From a virus (lineage: Duplodnaviria > Caudoviricetes): a stretch of DNA of 64,000 nt. Position 1 is the first letter of the stretch; each line of letters begins with the position of its first letter. The notes under the pieces were generated by a model. That model made no database searches, was not told the DNA's origin, and worked only from the letters and a program-made list of their open reading frames with translations. Positions 18,884 through 62,300 of the stretch are shown piece by piece. The stretch is taken from positions 1 to 64,000 of the IMG/VR virus record IMGVR_UViG_3300031853_000021; one strand, 5' to 3'. A program made the translations under genes and the position numbers.

Positions 18884-19020
18884 TCTTCCTCTTCGACGAT
18901 CAGCTCTTCCATGCCGCTTTCGATCAGGATCTCGCGGACCTGGTCTTTAAGAAGGCGCGGAACCTGCGCGAATGTCTTCTTTCCCAGAATGATCTTCTGT
19001 GCCCATAACATGGCCATCAT
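18880..19020 (-). CDS. Small XkdX/CD1375-like phage protein
   Basis: MMAMLWAQKIILGKKTFAQVPRLLKDQV. Confidence 0.75.
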   Translation of the reverse strand: MMAMLWAQKIILGKKTFAQVPRLLKDQVREILIESGMEELIVEEEE

Positions 19021-19067
19021 CGTGTCGACCTCCTTTCCATAGAATAATTGCATTAACGCCCGCCAGA

Positions 19068-19451
19068 TCATTCATACACCACTTCAGACATTTCCATGAT
19101 GCACTCTTCCAGCATGGCGATCTGCTCTTTCTGCTCGCTGACGATCTTCGTCAGCTGCGCCCGCGTCATCGCTTCTTCTTCGGGCGCTGGCGGATCCGGA
19201 TCCGGATGCGTGTCGTCCATTCCGTACTGCCACCACTTCGCGAAGTCCTCTTCGATCTCCTGCGCCGTCGCGGCCTTGCCGTCAGGCATGAAGAACTGTA
19301 CTTCATCGAACCGGTACATCGTCCGATCCGGCTGATCCTCCTGTTTGTACGGCTGGATATTGTCCGCAAGACGGACGAATATCTTCCCGCCCGGCAGATG
19401 TTCCAGTGTCACCTTCTGCGGCTTCTCTGCCGCGTCGCTCTTGTAATACAT
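19068..19451 (-). CDS. Conserved phage protein downstream of RT
   Basis: MYYKSDAAE...IAMLEECIMEMSEVVYE; near-identical copy at 57745-58128. Confidence 0.75.
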   Translation of the reverse strand: MYYKSDAAEKPQKVTLEHLPGGKIFVRLADNIQPYKQEDQPDRTMYRFDEVQFFMPDGKAATAQEIEEDFAKWWQYGMDDTHPDPDPPAPEEEAMTRAQLTKIVSEQKEQIAMLEECIMEMSEVVYE

Positions 19452-19470
19452 GCAGCCACTCCTTTCTTTT

Positions 19471-20694
19471 CTACTGGTCCAGCCGCTGATAAAATGCATT
19501 TATTTCCCTGGCGGTCCGCATCAGGTCATCTATGTGATACTTTTCAATCAGGCCGTCTGAATCCGTTTGAATGACATAGCTGTTATATGAGATAATCTTC
19601 CGCGCTCTATCTCGCCGCAGCGTGCCTGTTTCTGTCAGCTCCCTGTATCCTCTAATGAATTGTCTTCTTGCCCTCCGGAAGACGCGCCTGCGGATCGTGA
19701 TGTGCGTCCTGCTTATCCTGTATCCCGCCATGTCCAGCATCGGAACGCCGCGCTGCGCTTTTCCCGGAAGGCTTCGCCGTCGCTTTTCTTCTTCGATTGT
19801 CAGGATCTTGCTGATTCCGGATGTCGTCTTCAGTTCAATCCCCATTTTCTCCCGGAAGTATTTATCCAGATGCTTCGTCGCCCGTTTCATCCCTTTTATG
19901 GATCTGGACATCAGCGCGAAGTCATCCATGAAGGTGACGGTGCGGATCACGTACGGGATCTTCTTCCCGCGCCGCGTGGTTCCCTGTGCATACAGGTCGC
20001 GGATCGCGTAGGACATCGCGAAATTGAACAGCCAGGCATCGATGTACCCGCCGATGATCAGATGCCCGTCCGGCGCGATCCGTCCCAGATATTCCAGCAG
20101 GACGATCGCGGCCTTCGCTTTCGGGATCTCCTTCTTCAGGATGTCCACGCAGACCTGATACTTCAGCGTCGCGTATGCGTGGACGACGTCCGTCTTCTGG
20201 ATGTACCTGACGCCGACCGTCTCCTTCAGAAGGTATCTGTGCGCCTGATCCTTCAGCAGCGTCTGACCGCGTCCCGGAATGCTGGCGTGCTGCGTCGGCA
20301 GAAGCCGCGCGTTGATCAGCGGTTCGATCATCAGCTTTTCGATGTGTCCGATCAGCTGATGCAGGATGGACAACAGTGCGATGTCCCGTGTCTTCCCTGT
20401 CATGCCGTCCGGACGCTGGCGGATCGTCGGCGGCTCCATGTCGTCCGGTTCGATCCCGTATTCGACCAGATCTTCCACGACGCCGTACAGCATCAGCCCG
20501 ATCGAATGGATCGCTTCTTCCTTCACACGTCTGGATCCGGACAGATCGTCGATCAGGATTTCCGTCCTTCCGATTCCGGCGTACTTCTCGATGAATACCA
20601 GAATGTCGCGGTGCTTCCATTTGCTTTTGAAACATTCTTCGACTGCTTCTTCGCATAGCTTCAGGGACAGCTTCCTGTATCTCTTCGTGTGCAT
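19471..20694 (-). CDS. DGR reverse transcriptase (copy 1, 407 aa)
   Basis: RT blocks QHASIPGRG, YIQKTDV, GHLIIGG, TFMDDF, LDMAGYRI; adjacent TR/VR pair. Confidence 0.93.
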   Translation of the reverse strand: MHTKRYRKLSLKLCEEAVEECFKSKWKHRDILVFIEKYAGIGRTEILIDDLSGSRRVKEEAIHSIGLMLYGVVEDLVEYGIEPDDMEPPTIRQRPDGMTGKTRDIALLSILHQLIGHIEKLMIEPLINARLLPTQHASIPGRGQTLLKDQAHRYLLKETVGVRYIQKTDVVHAYATLKYQVCVDILKKEIPKAKAAIVLLEYLGRIAPDGHLIIGGYIDAWLFNFAMSYAIRDLYAQGTTRRGKKIPYVIRTVTFMDDFALMSRSIKGMKRATKHLDKYFREKMGIELKTTSGISKILTIEEEKRRRSLPGKAQRGVPMLDMAGYRISRTHITIRRRVFRRARRQFIRGYRELTETGTLRRDRARKIISYNSYVIQTDSDGLIEKYHIDDLMRTAREINAFYQRLDQ

Positions 20695-20699
20695 AATTC

Positions 20700-20885
20700 T
20701 TTATTTTGTGAAGCGGCGTTCGGTTGCGGTCTGACCTTAAAGCAGATCCGGCCTTGTTACTACTTGCCGCACGCGCAGCCCACAGCTGCGTGTTCCCCTT
20801 TCGAAGATTCCGGTTTTACTGATTTTTGCTTGCGCATGGATATGCAGACGCACATCAGCAGACTTTCGCCTGCCTTCATGAAAAT
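20700..20885 (-). ncRNA. DGR TR-to-RT spacer, structured RNA
   Basis: Sense-strand hairpins GCAGGC-GAAA-GTCTGC and GCAGC-TGTGG-GCTGC, plus AAGTAGTAA...CCGAACGCC before the RT start. Confidence 0.55.
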
Positions 20886-21029
20886 AAGTCGCGGACGGCT
20901 GTTCCAGTTCGCGTTACCGGGCGTGTTGTTGCCATTCTCGCACGCCAGCCCGGCATTCGCCCCGTTGTTCAAGTTCGCGAACCGCCACGGGCAGCGAACC
21001 CCGGCGGAGCCGGTACCGTTGAAGGCCGA
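20886..21029 (-). repeat. DGR template repeat (TR), copy 1
   Basis: Aligns ungapped to 21131-21274; rich in AAC/AAT codons (reads SAFNGTG..FANLNNGANAGLACENGNNTPGNANWNSRPRL). Confidence 0.95.
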
Positions 21030-21068
21030 TCCCGCGCCTGCATACCCTGTTTGTTTATAGTTACATCA

Positions 21069-21103
21069 GGGGACTTCCCCCTCTGGACGTCTTACGACGT
21101 CCA
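21069..21103 (-). other. Hairpins 3' of VR (DGR homing cis-element)
   Basis: Perfect 8-bp stem TGGACGTC-loop-GACGTCCA (21084-21103; sense loop GTAA includes the stop codon) and GGGG-4 nt-CCCC (21069-21080). Confidence 0.75.
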
Positions 21104-22801
21104 TTCACCCCGCTTTTTACCCGCTCCACAAAGCCGCGGACGGCTGCGCCAGCTCGCGTTACCGGGCGCGTTGTGGCCATACTCGCACGCCAGCCCGGCA
21201 AGCGCCCCGCTGTCCAAGGACGCGAACCGCCACCGGCAGCGAACCCCGGCGGAGCCGGGACCGCTGAAGGCCGACTTGAAGTAGGTCGTCGCTGATCCGC
21301 CGACCTCTTCCGGGAACAGGACGCCCTTCTTTGTCTTCATGAAGGACTTCACATAGTTCCAGCCGGATTTCATTCCTTCGTACAGCAGGCCAGTGTCTTC
21401 GTAGTTCGATGTCACGGATCCCGCCAGATTCTGACTGTCGCGGCATTCGTAGATCGAATAATCCCAATCAGACACAGCGTTCGCCGTGACGGTATAAAGC
21501 GGATCCAGGCCGACCGCATATGCGCCGTCCAGGACTTCCACGCCAGCCACACGAAGCGGCGACGTTCCATCCGTCAGCCCGTGCGGGCATCCGTCCTTCC
21601 TTCCCGGAAGAAGTTCTGTCGCGCCTGAATGCCACGGCATCGTCGAAATGTATGTCGTCGCTGTCGTGGTGAATGCGCTTTCCGTCTCTATGCCGACCGC
21701 TGCCAGTTCGTCGCCGTCGATCGTGACGGTTTCGATGGAACTGATCTTGACCAGATCCAGAATGTTCCGCATGTGTGCCTGTCCTCTGTCCTTGTTCGTG
21801 GACGATCCCATGTCGCCGATTGACACGGTCGAACCGACGATCAGGTTCGCGGCCTGCGTCGTCGACAGGATCACGCGCTTCACATTTTCTTCTGCCTTCG
21901 CTACCTGGTACTGTCTGTCGTAGCTGATGCAGCCGTTCGCGATGTTGCTGTTTTCCAGATCGAAGTGCCGCAGCTGCCACATCCGCAGGATCCATCTTGT
22001 ATCGCAGTCATTCCACAGTCCTTCATAGATCGTCATCTTCCGCGCCGCTGTGATGCCTGCGGTCGCGCTGGCGAAGTTGTACGGCCTGATGCCTGCGCCG
22101 GATGTCAGTGCGCCGCTGCTGTTCAGTCCGCCGGGGAATGAAGGATGCCATGTCAGCGCCCGCTTCGTTCCGTCCGGTGCGACATCCCCGGCGTCCGGAT
22201 AGAATCCCGCGCCTTTGGTCGTCCTGAAGCTGATGAAATTGAATGAACCGTCGTTCCATTCCTTGATCCACAATGCCAGCGCGAACGTCCAGACGGGCGC
22301 GTCTTCGCCTGTGATGTCGAAGCCGTCTTCGCCTTCGAAGTATGTGATGTTCATGGTTCCATCTTCCAGGGACATCGCATTCGCCCGGATGTACCATGTC
22401 ATCGGATCTTCGTCCGCCCAATCTTCGACGGCGGCATCGGATGCCGTGCACAGCTGCGCGGCGCTCTTTCCTTCCAGATCGTCCAGCGGCGTCATCGCCG
22501 TGTTTCCGGATACTGCTGCATCATAGCTTCGCAGCGTGTACGCCTTGCTGTTCCACGCCTGCGCCGCTGCTTTTGCGAATCTTTCAAGGATCTTATATTT
22601 GCTTGTCTCTCCTGCTGCCGCTGCGCGCGGATAGAATTCCCAGAAGACGCGCGTGGTGTTCGTTCCGTCCAGGACGCTTTTGCACGCCGCGTCAAGGACA
22701 GCCGCATCAGATGACCCGCCGTTCAGCGCGATCGATTCCAGCGCGGCGGCGATCCGTTCGTGCTGTGTCCACGAAGGGAAAATCAGATCCATGTCTGCCA
22801 T
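21092..22801 (-). CDS. DGR target protein (putative receptor-binding protein, C-terminal C-type-lectin-fold VR)
   Basis: VR encodes the last ~60 aa (FASLDSGALAGLACEYGHNAPGNASWRSRPRL); lies at the distal end of the tail operon. Confidence 0.9.
   Translation of the reverse strand: MADMDLIFPSWTQHERIAAALESIALNGGSSDAAVLDAACKSVLDGTNTTRVFWEFYPRAAAAGETSKYKILERFAKAAAQAWNSKAYTLRSYDAAVSGNTAMTPLDDLEGKSAAQLCTASDAAVEDWADEDPMTWYIRANAMSLEDGTMNITYFEGEDGFDITGEDAPVWTFALALWIKEWNDGSFNFISFRTTKGAGFYPDAGDVAPDGTKRALTWHPSFPGGLNSSGALTSGAGIRPYNFASATAGITAARKMTIYEGLWNDCDTRWILRMWQLRHFDLENSNIANGCISYDRQYQVAKAEENVKRVILSTTQAANLIVGSTVSIGDMGSSTNKDRGQAHMRNILDLVKISSIETVTIDGDELAAVGIETESAFTTTATTYISTMPWHSGATELLPGRKDGCPHGLTDGTSPLRVAGVEVLDGAYAVGLDPLYTVTANAVSDWDYSIYECRDSQNLAGSVTSNYEDTGLLYEGMKSGWNYVKSFMKTKKGVLFPEEVGGSATTYFKSAFSGPGSAGVRCRWRFASLDSGALAGLACEYGHNAPGNASWRSRPRLCGAGKKRGEWTS
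21131..21274 (-). repeat. DGR variable repeat (VR), copy 1
   Basis: 15 substitutions at TR adenines (A to G, C and T) and 1 non-adenine difference over 144 nt. Confidence 0.95.
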
Positions 22802-22816
22802 TTTCTTGTTCCTCCT

Positions 22817-23623
22817 TTATGCTGTGATCTTTGTCAGTGACATGTGCGGGACGCCCCGCTGCGCGTAGATCGCATACGCATATTTCACATCGTTGTCGCT
22901 GTCGTAGATGTACGACGCTTCATTGATCTGGCTTGCGATCTCCACGGCTTCGTTCGCCTTATTCAGGACGATCGTCGTGTTCTCCTGCCGCGTGTTCTCC
23001 GCTGTGACGCGTCCGTTCTCTGCGGTCACGCGGGCGTTCTCTGCTTCGACGCGGGCGTTCTCTGCGGTTACGCGGGCGTTCTCTGCGGTCACGCGGGCGT
23101 TCTCCGCATTTGCGCGGCTTGTCTCTGCGCTGACGCGCCTGTTCTCTGCCGTCTTTCTGGCGTTCTCTGCGGTCACGCGGGCGGCTTCCGCTTCCGCGTA
23201 TGCCTTCATGGTCGCGTCGAACAGTGACATTTCGTCGCCGGATATGATGGCGTCTTCATCCTTGACGCACGGTTCGATCTCGATTTCGAACGTGCAGGAC
23301 GTGATGACTTCGGTCATGTCCCCGGACTTCACTTCGATTTCTGCCAGTGCTGTCCCCGCTGCCGCCAGCGTCTGCGACGTCAGTTCCATCGTGACGACAG
23401 ACCCGGAAAACGTGCACGGCGAATATGCCCGCTTCAGATCCGGCTTCTTGATGTAGGCCGTGACGTTCGATCCGGGCGGGATCTCATATTCTTCGCCCTG
23501 ATTCAGCAGCTGGATTTCGACGTACCGCGTCGCCCTGTCGTGCTGCTTCGCCGATACCTGATACTGCTTCGTAGATCCTGACATCTCGATCTTCAGTCTT
23601 TTGATGACCCTGTTCAGGCTCAT
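22817..23623 (-). CDS. BppU-like baseplate/fibre adaptor with heptad coiled coil
   Basis: AKQHDRATRYVEIQL N-terminal domain; tandem AENARVT repeats. Confidence 0.75.
   Translation of the reverse strand: MSLNRVIKRLKIEMSGSTKQYQVSAKQHDRATRYVEIQLLNQGEEYEIPPGSNVTAYIKKPDLKRAYSPCTFSGSVVTMELTSQTLAAAGTALAEIEVKSGDMTEVITSCTFEIEIEPCVKDEDAIISGDEMSLFDATMKAYAEAEAARVTAENARKTAENRRVSAETSRANAENARVTAENARVTAENARVEAENARVTAENGRVTAENTRQENTTIVLNKANEAVEIASQINEASYIYDSDNDVKYAYAIYAQRGVPHMSLTKITA
22985..23182 (-). repeat. 21-bp coding tandem repeat (AENARVT heptads)
   Basis: Repeated GCGGGCGTTCTCTGCGGTCAC-like units. Confidence 0.85.
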
Positions 23624-57744: not shown

Positions 57745-58128
57745 TCATTCGTATACCACTTCCGACATCTCCAAGATGCAATCTTCCATCATGGCGATCT
57801 GCTCTTTCTGTTCGCTGACGATCTTCGTCAGCTGCGCCCGTGTCATCGCTTCTTCTTCAGGCGCTGGCGGATCCGGATCCGGATGTACATCATCCACCCC
57901 GTACTGCCACCATGTCGCGAAGTCCTCTTCGATCTCCTGCGCCGTCGCGGCCTTGCCGTCCGGCATGAAGAACTGGACTTCGTCAAAACGGTACATCGTC
58001 CGATCCGGCTGATCCTCCTGTTTGTACGGCTGGATATTGTCCGCAAGACGGACGAAGATCTTCCCGCCCGGCAGATGTTCCAGCGTCACCTTCTGCGGCA
58101 TCTCTGCCGCGTCGCTCTTGTAATACAT
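57745..58128 (-). CDS. Conserved phage protein downstream of RT
   Basis: Near-identical to 19068-19451. Confidence 0.75.
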   Translation of the reverse strand: MYYKSDAAEMPQKVTLEHLPGGKIFVRLADNIQPYKQEDQPDRTMYRFDEVQFFMPDGKAATAQEIEEDFATWWQYGVDDVHPDPDPPAPEEEAMTRAQLTKIVSEQKEQIAMMEDCILEMSEVVYE

Positions 58129-59371
58129 GCAGCCACTCCTTTCTTTTCTGCTGATCCAGCCGCTGATAGAGTCCCTGAACCTGTTCAGCCATCTTGATCA
58201 GTTCTTCCACGTGGTACTTTTCCTTCAGCCCGTGCGCGTCGGTCTGCTGCACGTAGCTGTTGTACGATATGATTTTCTGTGCACGATCCCGCCGCAGTGT
58301 TCCCGTTTTCTTCAGCTCTCTGTATCCTCTGATCAGCTGCCTTCGTGCCCTCCGGAAGACGCGCCTGCGGATCGTGATGTGCGTCCTGCTGATCCTGTAT
58401 CCCGCCATGTCCAGCATCGGGACGCCACGCTGCGCTTTTCCCGGAAGGCTCCGTCGTCGCTTCTCTTCTTCGATCGTCAGTATCTTACTGATTCCGGATG
58501 TCGTCTTCAGTTCGATTCCCATTTCCTTCCGGAAGTATTTGTCCAGGCGCTTCGTCGCCCGCTTCAGTCCTTTGACGGATCCAGACATCAGCGCGAAGTC
58601 GTCCATGAAGGTGACGACGCGGATCACGTACGGGATCTTCTTCCCGCGCCGTGTGGTTCCCTGTGCGTACAGGTCGCGGATCGCGTAGGACATCGCGAAA
58701 TTGAACAGCCAGGCGTCGATGTACCCGCCGATGATCAGATGCCCGTCCGGTGCGATCCGTCCCAGATATTCCAGCAGGGCGATCGCGGCCTTCGCCTTCG
58801 GGATCTCCTTCTTCAGGATGTCCACGCAGACCTGATACTTCAGCGTCGCGTATGCGTGGACGACGTCCGTCTTCTGGATGTACCTGACGCCGACCGTCTC
58901 CTTCAGAAGGTATCTGTGCGCCTGATCCTTCAGCAGCGTCTGACCGCGTCCCGGAATGCTGGCGTGCTGCGTCGGCAGAAGCCGCGCGTTGATCAGCGGT
59001 TCGATCATCAGCTTTTCGATGTGTCCGATCAGCTGATGCAGGATGGACAACAGTGCGATGTCCCGTGTCTTCCCTGTCATGCCGTCCGGACGCTGGCGGA
59101 TCGTCGGCGGCTCCATGTCGTCCGGTTCGATCCCGTATTCGACCAGATCTTCCACGACGCCGTACAGCATCAGCCCGATCGAATGGATCGCTTCTTCCTT
59201 CACACGTCTGGATCCGGACAGATCGTCGATCAGGATTTCCGTCCTTCCGATTCCGGCGTACTTCTCGATGAATACCAGAATGTCGCGGTGCTTCCATTTG
59301 CTTTTGAAACATTCTTCGACTGCTTCTTCGCATAGCTTCAGGGACAGCTTCCTGTATCTCTTCGTGTGCAT
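57983..59371 (-). CDS. DGR reverse transcriptase (copy 2, 462 aa through loss of the stop codon)
   Basis: Same motifs as copy 1; CAG replaces TAG after YQRLDQ. Confidence 0.92.
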   Translation of the reverse strand: MHTKRYRKLSLKLCEEAVEECFKSKWKHRDILVFIEKYAGIGRTEILIDDLSGSRRVKEEAIHSIGLMLYGVVEDLVEYGIEPDDMEPPTIRQRPDGMTGKTRDIALLSILHQLIGHIEKLMIEPLINARLLPTQHASIPGRGQTLLKDQAHRYLLKETVGVRYIQKTDVVHAYATLKYQVCVDILKKEIPKAKAAIALLEYLGRIAPDGHLIIGGYIDAWLFNFAMSYAIRDLYAQGTTRRGKKIPYVIRVVTFMDDFALMSGSVKGLKRATKRLDKYFRKEMGIELKTTSGISKILTIEEEKRRRSLPGKAQRGVPMLDMAGYRISRTHITIRRRVFRRARRQLIRGYRELKKTGTLRRDRAQKIISYNSYVQQTDAHGLKEKYHVEELIKMAEQVQGLYQRLDQQKRKEWLHVLQERRGRDAAEGDAGTSAGREDLRPSCGQYPAVQTGGSAGSDDVPF

Positions 59372-59562
59372 AATTCTTTATTTTGTGAAGCGGCGTTCGG
59401 TTGCGGTCTGACCTTAAAGCAGATCCGGCCTTGTTACTACTTGCCGCACGCGCAGCCCACAGCTGCGTGTTCCCCTTTCGAAGATTCCGGTTTTACTGAT
59501 TTTTGCTTGCGCATGGATATGCAGACGCACATCAGCAGACTTTCGCCTGCCTTCATGAAAAT

Positions 59563-59706
59563 AAGTCGCGGACGGCTGTTCCAGTTCGCGTTACCGGGCG
59601 TGTTGTTGCCATTCTCGCACGCCAGCCCGGCATTCGCCCCGTTGTTCAAGTTCGCGAACCGCCACGGGCAGCGAACCCCGGCGGAGCCGGTACCGTTGAA
59701 GGCCGA
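59563..59706 (-). repeat. DGR template repeat (TR), copy 2
   Basis: Same sequence as 20886-21029. Confidence 0.95.
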
Positions 59707-59768
59707 TCCCGCGCCTGCATACCCTGTTTGTTTATAGTTACATCAGGGGACTTCCCCCTCTGGACGTC

Positions 59769-61478
59769 TTACGACGTCCATTCACCCCGCTTTTTACCCG
59801 CTCCACAAAGCCGCGGACGGCTGCGCCAGCTCGCGTTACCGGGCGCGTTGTGGCCATACTCGCACGCCAGCCCGGCAAGCGCCCCGCTGTCCAAGGACGC
59901 GAACCGCCACCGGCAGCGAACCCCGGCGGAGCCGGGACCGCTGAAGGCCGACTTGAAGTAGGTCGTCGCTGATCCGCCGACCTCTTCCGGGAACAGGACG
60001 CCCTTCTTTGTCTTCATGAAGGACTTCACATAGTTCCAGCCGGATTTCATTCCTTCGTACAGCAGGCCAGTGTCTTCGTAGTTCGATGTCACGGATCCCG
60101 CCAGATTCTGACTGTCGCGGCATTCGTAGATCGAATAATCCCAATCAGACACAGCGTTCGCCGTGACGGTATAAAGCGGATCCAGGCCGACCGCATATGC
60201 GCCGTCCAGGACTTCCACGCCAGCCACACGAAGCGGCGACGTTCCATCCGTCAGCCCGTGCGGGCATCCGTCCTTCCTTCCCGGAAGAAGTTCTGTCGCG
60301 CCTGAATGCCACGGCATCGTCGAAATGTATGTCGTCGCTGTCGTGGTGAATGCGCTTTCCGTCTCTATGCCGACCGCTGCCAGTTCGTCGCCGTCGATCG
60401 TGACGGTTTCGATGGAACTGATCTTGACCAGATCCAGAATGTTCCGCATGTGTGCCTGTCCTCTGTCCTTGTTCGTGGACGATCCCATGTCGCCGATTGA
60501 CACGGTCGAACCGACGATCAGGTTCGCGGCCTGCGTCGTCGACAGGATCACGCGCTTCACATTTTCTTCTGCCTTCGCTACCTGGTACTGTCTGTCGTAG
60601 CTGATGCAGCCGTTCGCGATGTTGCTGTTTTCCAGATCGAAGTGCCGCAGCTGCCACATCCGCAGGATCCATCTTGTATCGCAGTCATTCCACAGTCCTT
60701 CATAGATCGTCATCTTCCGCGCCGCTGTGATGCCTGCGGTCGCGCTGGCGAAGTTGTACGGCCTGATGCCTGCGCCGGATGTCAGTGCGCCGCTGCTGTT
60801 CAGTCCGCCGGGGAATGAAGGATGCCATGTCAGCGCCCGCTTCGTTCCGTCCGGTGCGACATCCCCGGCGTCCGGATAGAATCCCGCGCCTTTGGTCGTC
60901 CTGAAGCTGATGAAATTGAATGAACCGTCGTTCCATTCCTTGATCCACAATGCCAGCGCGAACGTCCAGACGGGCGCGTCTTCGCCTGTGATGTCGAAGC
61001 CGTCTTCGCCTTCGAAGTATGTGATGTTCATGGTTCCATCTTCCAGGGACATCGCATTCGCCCGGATGTACCATGTCATCGGATCTTCGTCCGCCCAATC
61101 TTCGACGGCGGCATCGGATGCCGTGCACAGCTGCGCGGCGCTCTTTCCTTCCAGATCGTCCAGCGGCGTCATCGCCGTGTTTCCGGATACTGCTGCATCA
61201 TAGCTTCGCAGCGTGTACGCCTTGCTGTTCCACGCCTGCGCCGCTGCTTTTGCGAATCTTTCAAGGATCTTATATTTGCTTGTCTCTCCTGCTGCCGCTG
61301 CGCGCGGATAGAATTCCCAGAAGACGCGCGTGGTGTTCGTTCCGTCCAGGACGCTTTTGCACGCCGCGTCAAGGACAGCCGCATCAGATGACCCGCCGTT
61401 CAGCGCGATCGATTCCAGCGCGGCGGCGATCCGTTCGTGCTGTGTCCACGAAGGGAAAATCAGATCCATGTCTGCCAT
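59769..61478 (-). CDS. DGR target protein, copy 2
   Basis: 569-aa translation identical to 21092-22801. Confidence 0.9.
   Translation of the reverse strand: MADMDLIFPSWTQHERIAAALESIALNGGSSDAAVLDAACKSVLDGTNTTRVFWEFYPRAAAAGETSKYKILERFAKAAAQAWNSKAYTLRSYDAAVSGNTAMTPLDDLEGKSAAQLCTASDAAVEDWADEDPMTWYIRANAMSLEDGTMNITYFEGEDGFDITGEDAPVWTFALALWIKEWNDGSFNFISFRTTKGAGFYPDAGDVAPDGTKRALTWHPSFPGGLNSSGALTSGAGIRPYNFASATAGITAARKMTIYEGLWNDCDTRWILRMWQLRHFDLENSNIANGCISYDRQYQVAKAEENVKRVILSTTQAANLIVGSTVSIGDMGSSTNKDRGQAHMRNILDLVKISSIETVTIDGDELAAVGIETESAFTTTATTYISTMPWHSGATELLPGRKDGCPHGLTDGTSPLRVAGVEVLDGAYAVGLDPLYTVTANAVSDWDYSIYECRDSQNLAGSVTSNYEDTGLLYEGMKSGWNYVKSFMKTKKGVLFPEEVGGSATTYFKSAFSGPGSAGVRCRWRFASLDSGALAGLACEYGHNAPGNASWRSRPRLCGAGKKRGEWTS
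59808..59951 (-). repeat. DGR variable repeat (VR), copy 2
   Basis: Same sequence as 21131-21274. Confidence 0.95.
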
Positions 61479-61493
61479 TTTCTTGTTCCTCCT

Positions 61494-62300
61494 TTATGCT
61501 GTGATCTTTGTCAGTGACATGTGCGGGACGCCCCGCTGCGCGTAGATCGCATACGCATATTTCACATCGTTGTCGCTGTCGTAGATGTACGACGCTTCAT
61601 TGATCTGGCTTGCGATCTCCACGGCTTCGTTCGCCTTATTCAGGACGATCGTCGTGTTCTCCTGCCGCGTGTTCTCCGCTGTGACGCGTCCGTTCTCTGC
61701 GGTCACGCGGGCGTTCTCTGCTTCGACGCGGGCGTTCTCTGCGGTTACGCGGGCGTTCTCTGCGGTCACGCGGGCGTTCTCCGCATTTGCGCGGCTTGTC
61801 TCTGCGCTGACGCGCCTGTTCTCTGCCGTCTTTCTGGCGTTCTCTGCGGTCACGCGGGCGGCTTCCGCTTCCGCGTATGCCTTCATGGTCGCGTCGAACA
61901 GTGACATTTCGTCGCCGGATATGATGGCGTCTTCATCCTTGACGCACGGTTCGATCTCGATTTCGAACGTGCAGGACGTGATGACTTCGGTCATGTCCCC
62001 GGACTTCACTTCGATTTCTGCCAGTGCTGTCCCCGCTGCCGCCAGCGTCTGCGATGCCAGTTCCATCGTGACGACGGAACCCTCAAACGTACACGGAGAA
62101 TATGCGCGTGTCAGGTCCGGCTTTTTGATGTAGGCCGTGACGTTTGATCCCGCCGGGATCTCGTAGGCCGCGCCGTTGTCCAACAGTTCCACTTCGACGT
62201 ACCTGGTCGCCCTGTCGTGCTGTTTTGCTGATACCTGGTACTGTTTTGTGGATCCGGACATTTCTATCTTCAGGCGTTTGATCACTCTGTTCAGGCTCAT
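61494..62300 (-). CDS. BppU-like baseplate/fibre adaptor
   Basis: C-terminal two thirds identical to 22817-23623; N-terminus diverged. Confidence 0.75.
   Translation of the reverse strand: MSLNRVIKRLKIEMSGSTKQYQVSAKQHDRATRYVEVELLDNGAAYEIPAGSNVTAYIKKPDLTRAYSPCTFEGSVVTMELASQTLAAAGTALAEIEVKSGDMTEVITSCTFEIEIEPCVKDEDAIISGDEMSLFDATMKAYAEAEAARVTAENARKTAENRRVSAETSRANAENARVTAENARVTAENARVEAENARVTAENGRVTAENTRQENTTIVLNKANEAVEIASQINEASYIYDSDNDVKYAYAIYAQRGVPHMSLTKITA

Follow-up and report, generated by a model that had tools for sequence, protein, structure and literature searches.

A reverse transcriptase with DA in place of SQ, from a compact phage diversity-generating retroelement, belongs to a clade that diversifies its variable repeats at adenines

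Here we describe a reverse transcriptase (RT) gene on the minus strand of a 64,000-nt stretch of viral DNA (Duplodnaviria; Caudoviricetes), which comprises positions 1 to 64,000 of the IMG/VR record IMGVR_UViG_3300031853_000021 and is called the window in the following. A first-pass annotation, made by a model from the letters alone, had read the gene as encoding the RT of a diversity-generating retroelement (DGR) that lacks the canonical SQ dipeptide. We consider it highly probable that the gene is part of a compact, Avd-less phage DGR, that its product belongs to a naturally active clade of RTs with [D/E][A/S] at the SQ position, and that adenine mutagenesis proceeds there without SQ. The cassette has no accessory gene; it consists of a target gene with a variable repeat (VR) at its 3′ end, about 100 nt of intervening sequence, the template repeat (TR), a structured spacer RNA of about 190 nt and the RT gene (Table 1). 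It is a variant of a known system and opens no new class of system. The complete record is a contig of 78,688 nt in which two related phage genomes of ~39 kb each stand in tandem, being 72–85% identical over most of their length, and both carry such a cassette; the RT gene in question is referred to as copy 1, that of the second genome as copy 2.

The TR and the VR are the two copies of a 144-nt direct repeat that lies upstream of the RT gene on the same strand. They differ at 16 positions, 15 of which are TR adenines and one of which is a C>G exchange; this pattern is far from chance and bears out the adenine-specific changes that the first-pass annotation had noticed in the adjacent VR. The protein encoded by the target gene matches phrog_17147 (E 3.4e-132) and phrog_5302 (tail), and the VR ends 36 nt from its stop. 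The AlphaFold2 (AF2) model of this protein (predicted local distance difference test, pLDDT, of 90.4) finds as its top match in the PDB the DGR variable protein TaqVP of Thermus aquaticus (5vf4, E 7e-7), with a low TM-score (0.32–0.48), since the protein aligns in part only.

In copy 1 the RT motifs read IIGGYIDAWLFN, TFMDDF and ILHQLIGH, and the presence of GHLIIGGYIDAWLFN, TFMDDF and ILHQLIGH in the 407-aa open reading frame (ORF) at 19471–20694 (−) agrees exactly with the earlier reading of an RT without SQ. Motif 4 is I214-G-G-Y-I-D219-A220, i.e. the I-G pair is retained, SQ is replaced by DA and the [I/V/L]GxxxSQ signature is not matched. Motif 5 is FMDD (versus Y(V/M)DD), with the two catalytic aspartates both present and invariant in the clade. 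The protein matches phrog_1423 (reverse transcriptase) with E 6e-31. As a sequence search of the PDB with this protein recovered no RT, structure was needed to establish a link to the PDB. Aligning a profile of 20 homologues with the Bordetella phage RT (bRT) in hhalign gave a probability of 93.7% (E 1.9e-7) across 243 columns; IIGGYlDAWLFN is matched with bRT IPIGSLTSQLFAN (IGGYIDA on IGSLTSQ), with I214-G215 opposite I181-G182, D219 opposite S186 and A220 opposite Q187, and likewise K101-x-R103 aligns with bRT K72-x-R74 and HQxxGH with bRT DRxxQH. For the AF2 model of the intact copy 2 (pLDDT 91.6), the PDB entry that matches best is bRT from the active DGR ribonucleoprotein (8ub7_A; E 3e-14 by Foldseek). 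In the VIA comparison with 8ub7_A, 321 of 328 bRT residues superimpose on model residues 1–392 (Z 28.6, root-mean-square deviation 2.7 Å), and the leading non-DGR RTs reach Z 23.3 (G2L4) and 21.9 (group II). Throughout 103 relatives G143, D169, G215, D257, D258 and G324 are invariant and K101, R103 and I214 are conserved to 90% or more; variation is seen at positions 219–220. The enzyme is a true DGR RT.

The surmise that such an RT might mark a clade of its own is confirmed in so far as a coherent group without SQ exists. One protein search returned 359 relatives, and a search of 1.84 billion cluster representatives returned 482 clusters (50% identity) at E ≤1e-3, with 48 at ≤1e-30. Relatives with at least 38% identity read IIGGY[L/I][D/E]AWLFN, the next shell reads IIGGY..S[T/S/C] or IGSYLSA, and those at 25–31% identity have the canonical IGSYLSQ together with FYMDD. 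Among GenBank phages only 8 records match, and the top one, with 70% identity, is unannotated. In a maximum-likelihood tree of 104 sequences (quick search; bRT as root and only outside reference) the [D/E][A/S] clade is monophyletic, with a Shimodaira–Hasegawa-like approximate likelihood ratio test (SH-aLRT) value of 100 and a stem length of 0.72. It is sister to a clade with IIGGY..S[T/S/C] (SH-aLRT 97), and the two together (99) are nested in the SQ/SA radiation. The clade is derived from SQ-bearing ancestors via S[T/S/C] and SA forms; this direction of change is well supported, and the enclosing published clade is not named by the tree. Of the RT phylogeny that the first-pass annotation had proposed as a check, the nesting among SQ-bearing DGR RTs is obtained here with bRT alone as outside reference. 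Loci of the sister clade in IMG/VR (L084–L163) carry IGGYLP[A/S/C/T]WLFN or IGSYLSTWLFN with YADD, most of them beside an adenine-biased TR/VR pair, and the SQ position is therefore highly variable across the radiation. We assign the [D/E][A/S] clade to the DGR RTs of rumen and gut phages, with Firmicutes hosts according to Roux et al. (2021).

The clade diversifies its VRs in nature. Three scans of IMG/VR yielded 240 loci, which were filtered by self-BLAST: a direct repeat counted if its copies differed at 4 or more positions and if adenines of the RT-proximal copy accounted for no less than 75% of these. Such an adenine-biased TR/VR pair is found in 31 of 38 loci with DA and 31 of 39 loci with EA (62 of 77 combined), and also with PA (20 of 27), PS (12 of 15), ST (11 of 19) and PC (6 of 14), compared with 68 of 78 loci with SQ in the same radiation; in one scan set, the pair is present in 62 of 80 related loci. 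Most loci without a pair have an upstream flank that is too short. The pooled mismatches, which are biased by the selection filter, are distributed between TR adenines and other positions as 465:16 (DA), 468:7 (EA) and 968:84 (SQ); in two ES variants (L070, L071) a TR/VR pair is present, but only 6 of its 10 mismatches are at adenine. All loci share a common layout (VR, 86–209 nt, TR of ~140–149 nt, ~120–266 nt, RT), and the VR-TR-RT order is kept in at least 130 of them. The targets are homologous and 511–619 aa long (with one outlier of 881 aa), and the VR lies 6–41 nt from the stop in all but one.

The strongest evidence comes from nine loci, one in the window and 8 in IMG/VR records of other rumen samples, where the TR is identical at every base and the VRs are all different, varying at TR-adenine positions only, save for the window-specific C>G. 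A terminal A>G (TR GACTT, VR GGCTT) is fixed in all nine loci and probably marks a boundary that resembles the initiation of mutagenic homing (IMH) site. Public runs from bovine or sheep guts, 20 in number and drawn from 12 studies, contain the stretch, with no more than 69% of the sampled sequence words in any of them. In four independent ruminant-gut runs among these the flanks are covered and the contigs fragment or diverge over the VR. In one run (X2) a contig joins the TR straight to the VR (21019 to 21265). The 245 nt left out match the spacing of the repeats, and the TR/VR repeat was probably collapsed during assembly, with no real deletion in the phage behind it. Diversification in nature is shown in this way for the clade, not for the truncated copy 1. 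As the clade is active without SQ, adenine-specific mutagenesis does not need the SQ dipeptide.

That SQ is dispensable, as these loci show, is in line with published mutagenesis. Handa et al. (2020; PMC7826257) reported that R74A and I181N lower adenine misincorporation by bRT and that Q187P leaves its frequency unchanged, and in cryo-EM work on bRT by the same authors R74, I181 and Q187 touch the incoming base (bioRxiv 10.1101/2023.10.23.563531). The equivalents of R74 and I181 are retained here as R103 and I214. The first-pass annotation had tied the SQ region to adenine infidelity and had expected a DA variant to be informative about the mechanism; SQ is indeed absent, but the tie rests on I181, the first residue of the motif, and on R74, both of which are conserved here, and the Q187P exchange leaves adenine misincorporation as it was. 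In the survey of Schillinger et al. (2012) SQ is found in 90% of DGR RTs and is therefore a signature, not an absolute requirement; 15 of 155 are variants (SP, SH, NQ, PA, AQ, VQ) that still go with adenine exchanges, and the table of that study lists Coprococcus catus GD/7 as 'no IGNLTSQ, but CIGGYLPA'. [quoted passage not shown] (2021), in which DGRs were detected by hidden Markov models (HMMs) and repeats, not by motifs; current detectors very probably do not miss it. In part, then, the RT does nest in a described clade, namely a catalogued one. The cluster concerned, Meta_3300021256_Ga0223826_1000104711 (16 sequences; rumen, Firmicutes, viral, target PC_00002), is probably this clade, judged by sample ids and gene positions rather than by sequence. 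Its members and the 93%-identical loci L002–L006 stem from one and the same set of five rumen metagenomes, both are phage-encoded with a phage structural target, and a higher-level cluster takes in sample 3300014798 as well, from which L015 was obtained; on RT motifs, the 2021 study is silent. Nor does FMDD, which the first-pass annotation had set against YxDD, stand out within this radiation: among the DA loci 31 of 38 have it, among the SQ loci 8 of 78, Y and F alternate at motif 5 within the clade and likewise among its SQ relatives, and FMDD and HQxxGH alike are commonplace in the radiation at large.

The spacer between TR and RT contains a conserved structured RNA. For 16 diverged loci RNAalifold gave 22 pairs, 16 of them with compensatory changes; 84% of the cells pair (33–45% in slid controls) and the covariation is 0.516 (at most 0.204 in slid controls). 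An equivalent of this segment occurs in loci L010–L076. A scan of positions 19000–23000 with Rfam returned no match (no spacer RNA family, intron RNA or msr/msd), and a promoter and terminator scan found no excess of sites over shuffled sequence. We regard the element as a candidate equivalent of the spacer (Sp) RNA of BPP-1, which may serve as a priming or RT-binding element of Avd-less DGRs. In the BPP-1 DGR a hairpin 3′ of the VR is required, and by analogy the hairpin that flanks the VR here is a candidate counterpart. Searches of the 78.7-kb phage record for Avd (PF05635) and HRDC (PF00570) gave no match; MSL and CH1 were not searched for. In all loci of the DA/EA clade the gaps between VR and TR (90–190 nt) and between TR and RT (190–266 nt) are so short that they leave no room for an avd gene. 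By homology with BPP-1, the RT would bind the TR-spacer transcript, synthesis of complementary DNA (cDNA) would be primed inside this RNA and be faithful except opposite template adenines, and the mutagenised cDNA would replace the VR by way of its GC-rich 3′ end and the adjoining hairpin, with the outcome that the receptor-binding tip of the tail protein is rewritten. Priming and retrohoming in this scheme, and its independence of Avd, are inferred; what the data show is the anatomy, the homology, the nesting of the clade and the natural diversification of its VRs.

Table 1. Positions in the window of the two DGR cassettes and their elements
Feature	Position	Strand	Description
DGR reverse transcriptase, copy 1	19471..20694	-	407 aa; motif 4 IGGYIDA, motif 5 FMDD; ends at a premature TAG (19471-19473)
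Leftover 3′ part of the RT frame	19303..19470	-	55 codons and stop; still encodes the tail of relatives P0001 and P0002
Conserved structured RNA in TR-RT spacer	20713..20792	-	Hairpin, then a closing helix that encloses a second hairpin
Template repeat (TR)	20886..21029	-	Non-coding, AAC-rich; 100% identical in 8 IMG/VR loci of other samples
Hairpin GGACGTC-GTAA-GACGTCC	21085..21102	-	Perfect 7-bp stem just 3′ of the VR; the GTAA loop holds the TAA stop of the target; read from sequence
DGR target gene	21092..22801	-	569-aa phage tail or receptor-binding protein; C-terminal DGR variable-protein fold, C-type lectin-like
Variable repeat (VR)	21131..21274	-	Codes for the C-terminal ~60 residues of the target
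DGR reverse transcriptase, copy 2	57983..59371	-	Intact, 462 aa; IGGYIDA and FMDD; 93% identity with copy 1
Second TR, VR and target gene	59563..61478 (target 59769-61478)	-	Base-identical to the first set

Compared with the BPP-1 DGR (bRT-Avd, TR, mtd VR1; 8ub7), the cassette has the same order of target with VR, TR and RT on one strand, a tail-protein target with a 3′ VR, TR/VR differences at adenines only, the RT fold superimposed above, conserved residues that correspond to the catalytic D138, D215 and D216 and to R74, I181 and G182, a hairpin that follows the GC-rich 3′ end of the VR, and a structured RNA on the 3′ side of the TR. It differs from BPP-1 in its sequence (18% identity), in the exchanges of SQ for DA, YMDD for FMDD and DRxxQH for HQxxGH, in having no avd between VR and TR or elsewhere in the record, in an RT that is ~135 aa longer, mainly owing to a basic C-terminal helix, a disordered tail and small inserts, and in a target that is closer to TaqVP than to Mtd. 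The DGR RT of Coprococcus catus GD/7 (gi 291522399), also from gut Firmicutes and also non-SQ with adenine exchanges, has the (C/I)IGGYLxxWLFN context of the sister clade (PA, PS, PC, PT, YADD), a link that rests on the quoted motif. It has PA instead of D/E-A, motif 5 of the sister clade is YADD, and it was a single case in which the radiation was not recognised. Wu et al. (2018; PMC5758913) found no accessory gene in 29% of DGRs and proposed Avd-independent retrohoming. Their Avd-less DGRs of architecture A (Lineage 3) share the TR-RT core without an accessory gene; Lineage 3A, however, is from Bacteroides and not from Firmicutes, and the likeness to Lineage 3 is one of architecture only.

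Several points speak against an SQ-independent, Avd-less DGR as described here. The activity of the clade is deduced from natural TR/VR patterns, the counts stem from loci preselected for at least 75% adenine mismatches, and five DA/EA loci with enough flank (L020, L028, L030, L043, L054) have a TR and no VR partner by BLAST within 5 kb. With Pfam RVT_1 the copy 1 RT scores 27.8 bits, which is under the cut-off of 29.6. Avd might be supplied by the host, as the data come from the phage record alone. In bRT, Q187 contacts the incoming base, hence its loss could still alter kinetics or spectrum. Finally, copy 1 has a premature stop, the two VRs of the record are identical, and nothing ties the mutagenesis to copy 1 itself.

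It is possible, though we would not call it probable, that the copy 1 RT is decaying and inactive, and that the VR pattern goes back to an ancestor or, in trans, to the intact paralogue at 57983–59371, the TR and VR being identical. The first-pass annotation had itself named this way of being wrong, and both a premature stop and an intact copy, 38.7 kb away, are present. The TAG at codon 408 stands where copy 2 has CAG, and the frame stays open for 55 more codons past it. This single CAG>TAG change is private to the record: position 19473 is G on the plus strand (coding CAG) in every covering contig, from four ruminant-gut runs of four studies. Reading of TAG as glutamine, prompted by the CAG in relatives, was considered and rejected; there is no tRNA in the window, suppressor tRNAs included, TAG as a sense codon adds almost nothing to the coding-strand ORFs, and we saw no sign of TAG recoding. 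Two close relatives of copy 1 have in-frame deletions, one of 25 aa before motif 4 (P0002) and one of about 20 aa that includes the motif-A aspartate (P0003), which suggests RT decay in part of the lineage, or assembly errors. Moreover, a 3.2-kb block (20120–23300, corresponding to 58797–61977) is base-identical between the two phage genomes and spans the 5′ 190 codons of the RT gene, the spacer, the TR, the hypervariable VR, the entire target gene and part of the next tail gene; with TR, VR and the whole target identical at every base, no site in them has diversified since the duplication. That two phages which have diverged elsewhere carry the same VR may be due to an exchange in the very recent past, to recombination of phages residing together, or to an artefact or chimera of the assembly.

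However, what copy 1 has lost is a clade-specific C-terminal extension (residues 408–462) that lies wholly outside the bRT-aligned part of the model, so that the 407-aa protein retains the complete core that corresponds to bRT. For the intact copy the model predicts a terminal helix at residues 388–422 and disorder at residues 432–462, and the truncation would remove half of the helix and the tail, which overlaps the next gene. The catalytic residues and those in contact with template and deoxynucleoside triphosphate are all intact in copy 1, and its TAG depends on one base in a metagenome assembly, where the assembler may have erred or picked a rare variant. The gene that follows the RT gene (19068–19499, −; likely start ATG 19451) codes for a protein of about 127 aa, for which no family match was found. 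Its ribosome-binding site (AAAGGAG) and first ~45 codons lie inside the C-terminal tail of the RT in another frame, an overlap that is kept in copy 2 (next gene 57745–58128).

We think it unlikely that DA in place of SQ changes the spectrum or efficiency of adenine misreading and makes the clade a distinct mechanistic subtype. An alanine would be unable to make the contact of Q187 with the incoming base, and the pooled A>G, A>T and A>C changes amount to 51%, 28% and 20% in DA loci versus 40%, 33% and 27% in SQ loci. In EA loci of the same clade, however, the values are 32%, 42% and 26%, and in PA loci they are 34%, 42% and 25%; compared across DA, EA, PA, ST and SQ loci, the spectrum, whose counts are confounded by VR selection and near-duplicate loci, does not track the motif. 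The unchanged misincorporation frequency of Q187P also argues against a distinct subtype, as does an adenine specificity of 96–98%, which is at least as high as that of the SQ loci (92%).

That the enzyme is no DGR RT at all, but an RT of another prokaryotic class (group II intron-like, retron, UG/DRT or Abi) that lies beside the repeat by chance, is extremely improbable: apart from the RVT_1 score, its sole NCBIfam match is the group II RT model TIGR04416 (23.5 bits versus a cut-off of 300) and PADLOC gives weak generic RT and UG4 matches (E about 1e-5), but bRT leads the structural matches by 5 Z units, the tree nests the RT among SQ-bearing RTs with adenine-biased TR/VR pairs of their own, the layout is conserved, and the Rfam scan detected neither intron RNA nor msr/msd nor any other family.

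Starting from the Avd-less DGR with a [D/E][A/S] RT that we favour, we put forward one further proposal, tentatively and with more doubt than confidence. In the large radiation of Avd-less DGRs in phages of gut and rumen Firmicutes, SQ may have been freed to change, from SQ to S[A/T/S/C] and on to [D/E]A or P[A/S/C/T], for the proposed reason that these RTs grip template and incoming nucleotide in another way, and the basic C-terminal helix peculiar to the clade and the spacer RNA would do what Avd does in BPP-1.

The SQ dipeptide has been treated as a hallmark of DGR RTs, and speculation has traced their adenine infidelity to it. Hundreds of natural loci now show that clades with D/E-A, P-x or S-x keep a strictly adenine-directed and ongoing diversification of their VRs. 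These natural non-SQ clades agree with the Q187P mutant and bring attention back to the conserved equivalents of R74 and I181. Motif filters that require SQ would drop abundant DGRs of ruminant and human gut phages. The compact Avd-less cassettes with their defined spacer RNA are candidate minimal diversification tools, and the Avd-less layout with its covarying spacer RNA is the part that most deserves experiment. If helix and spacer RNA do replace Avd, this would be a distinct, self-sufficient form of mutagenic retrohoming by RT and RNA, and a simpler chassis for targeted diversification.

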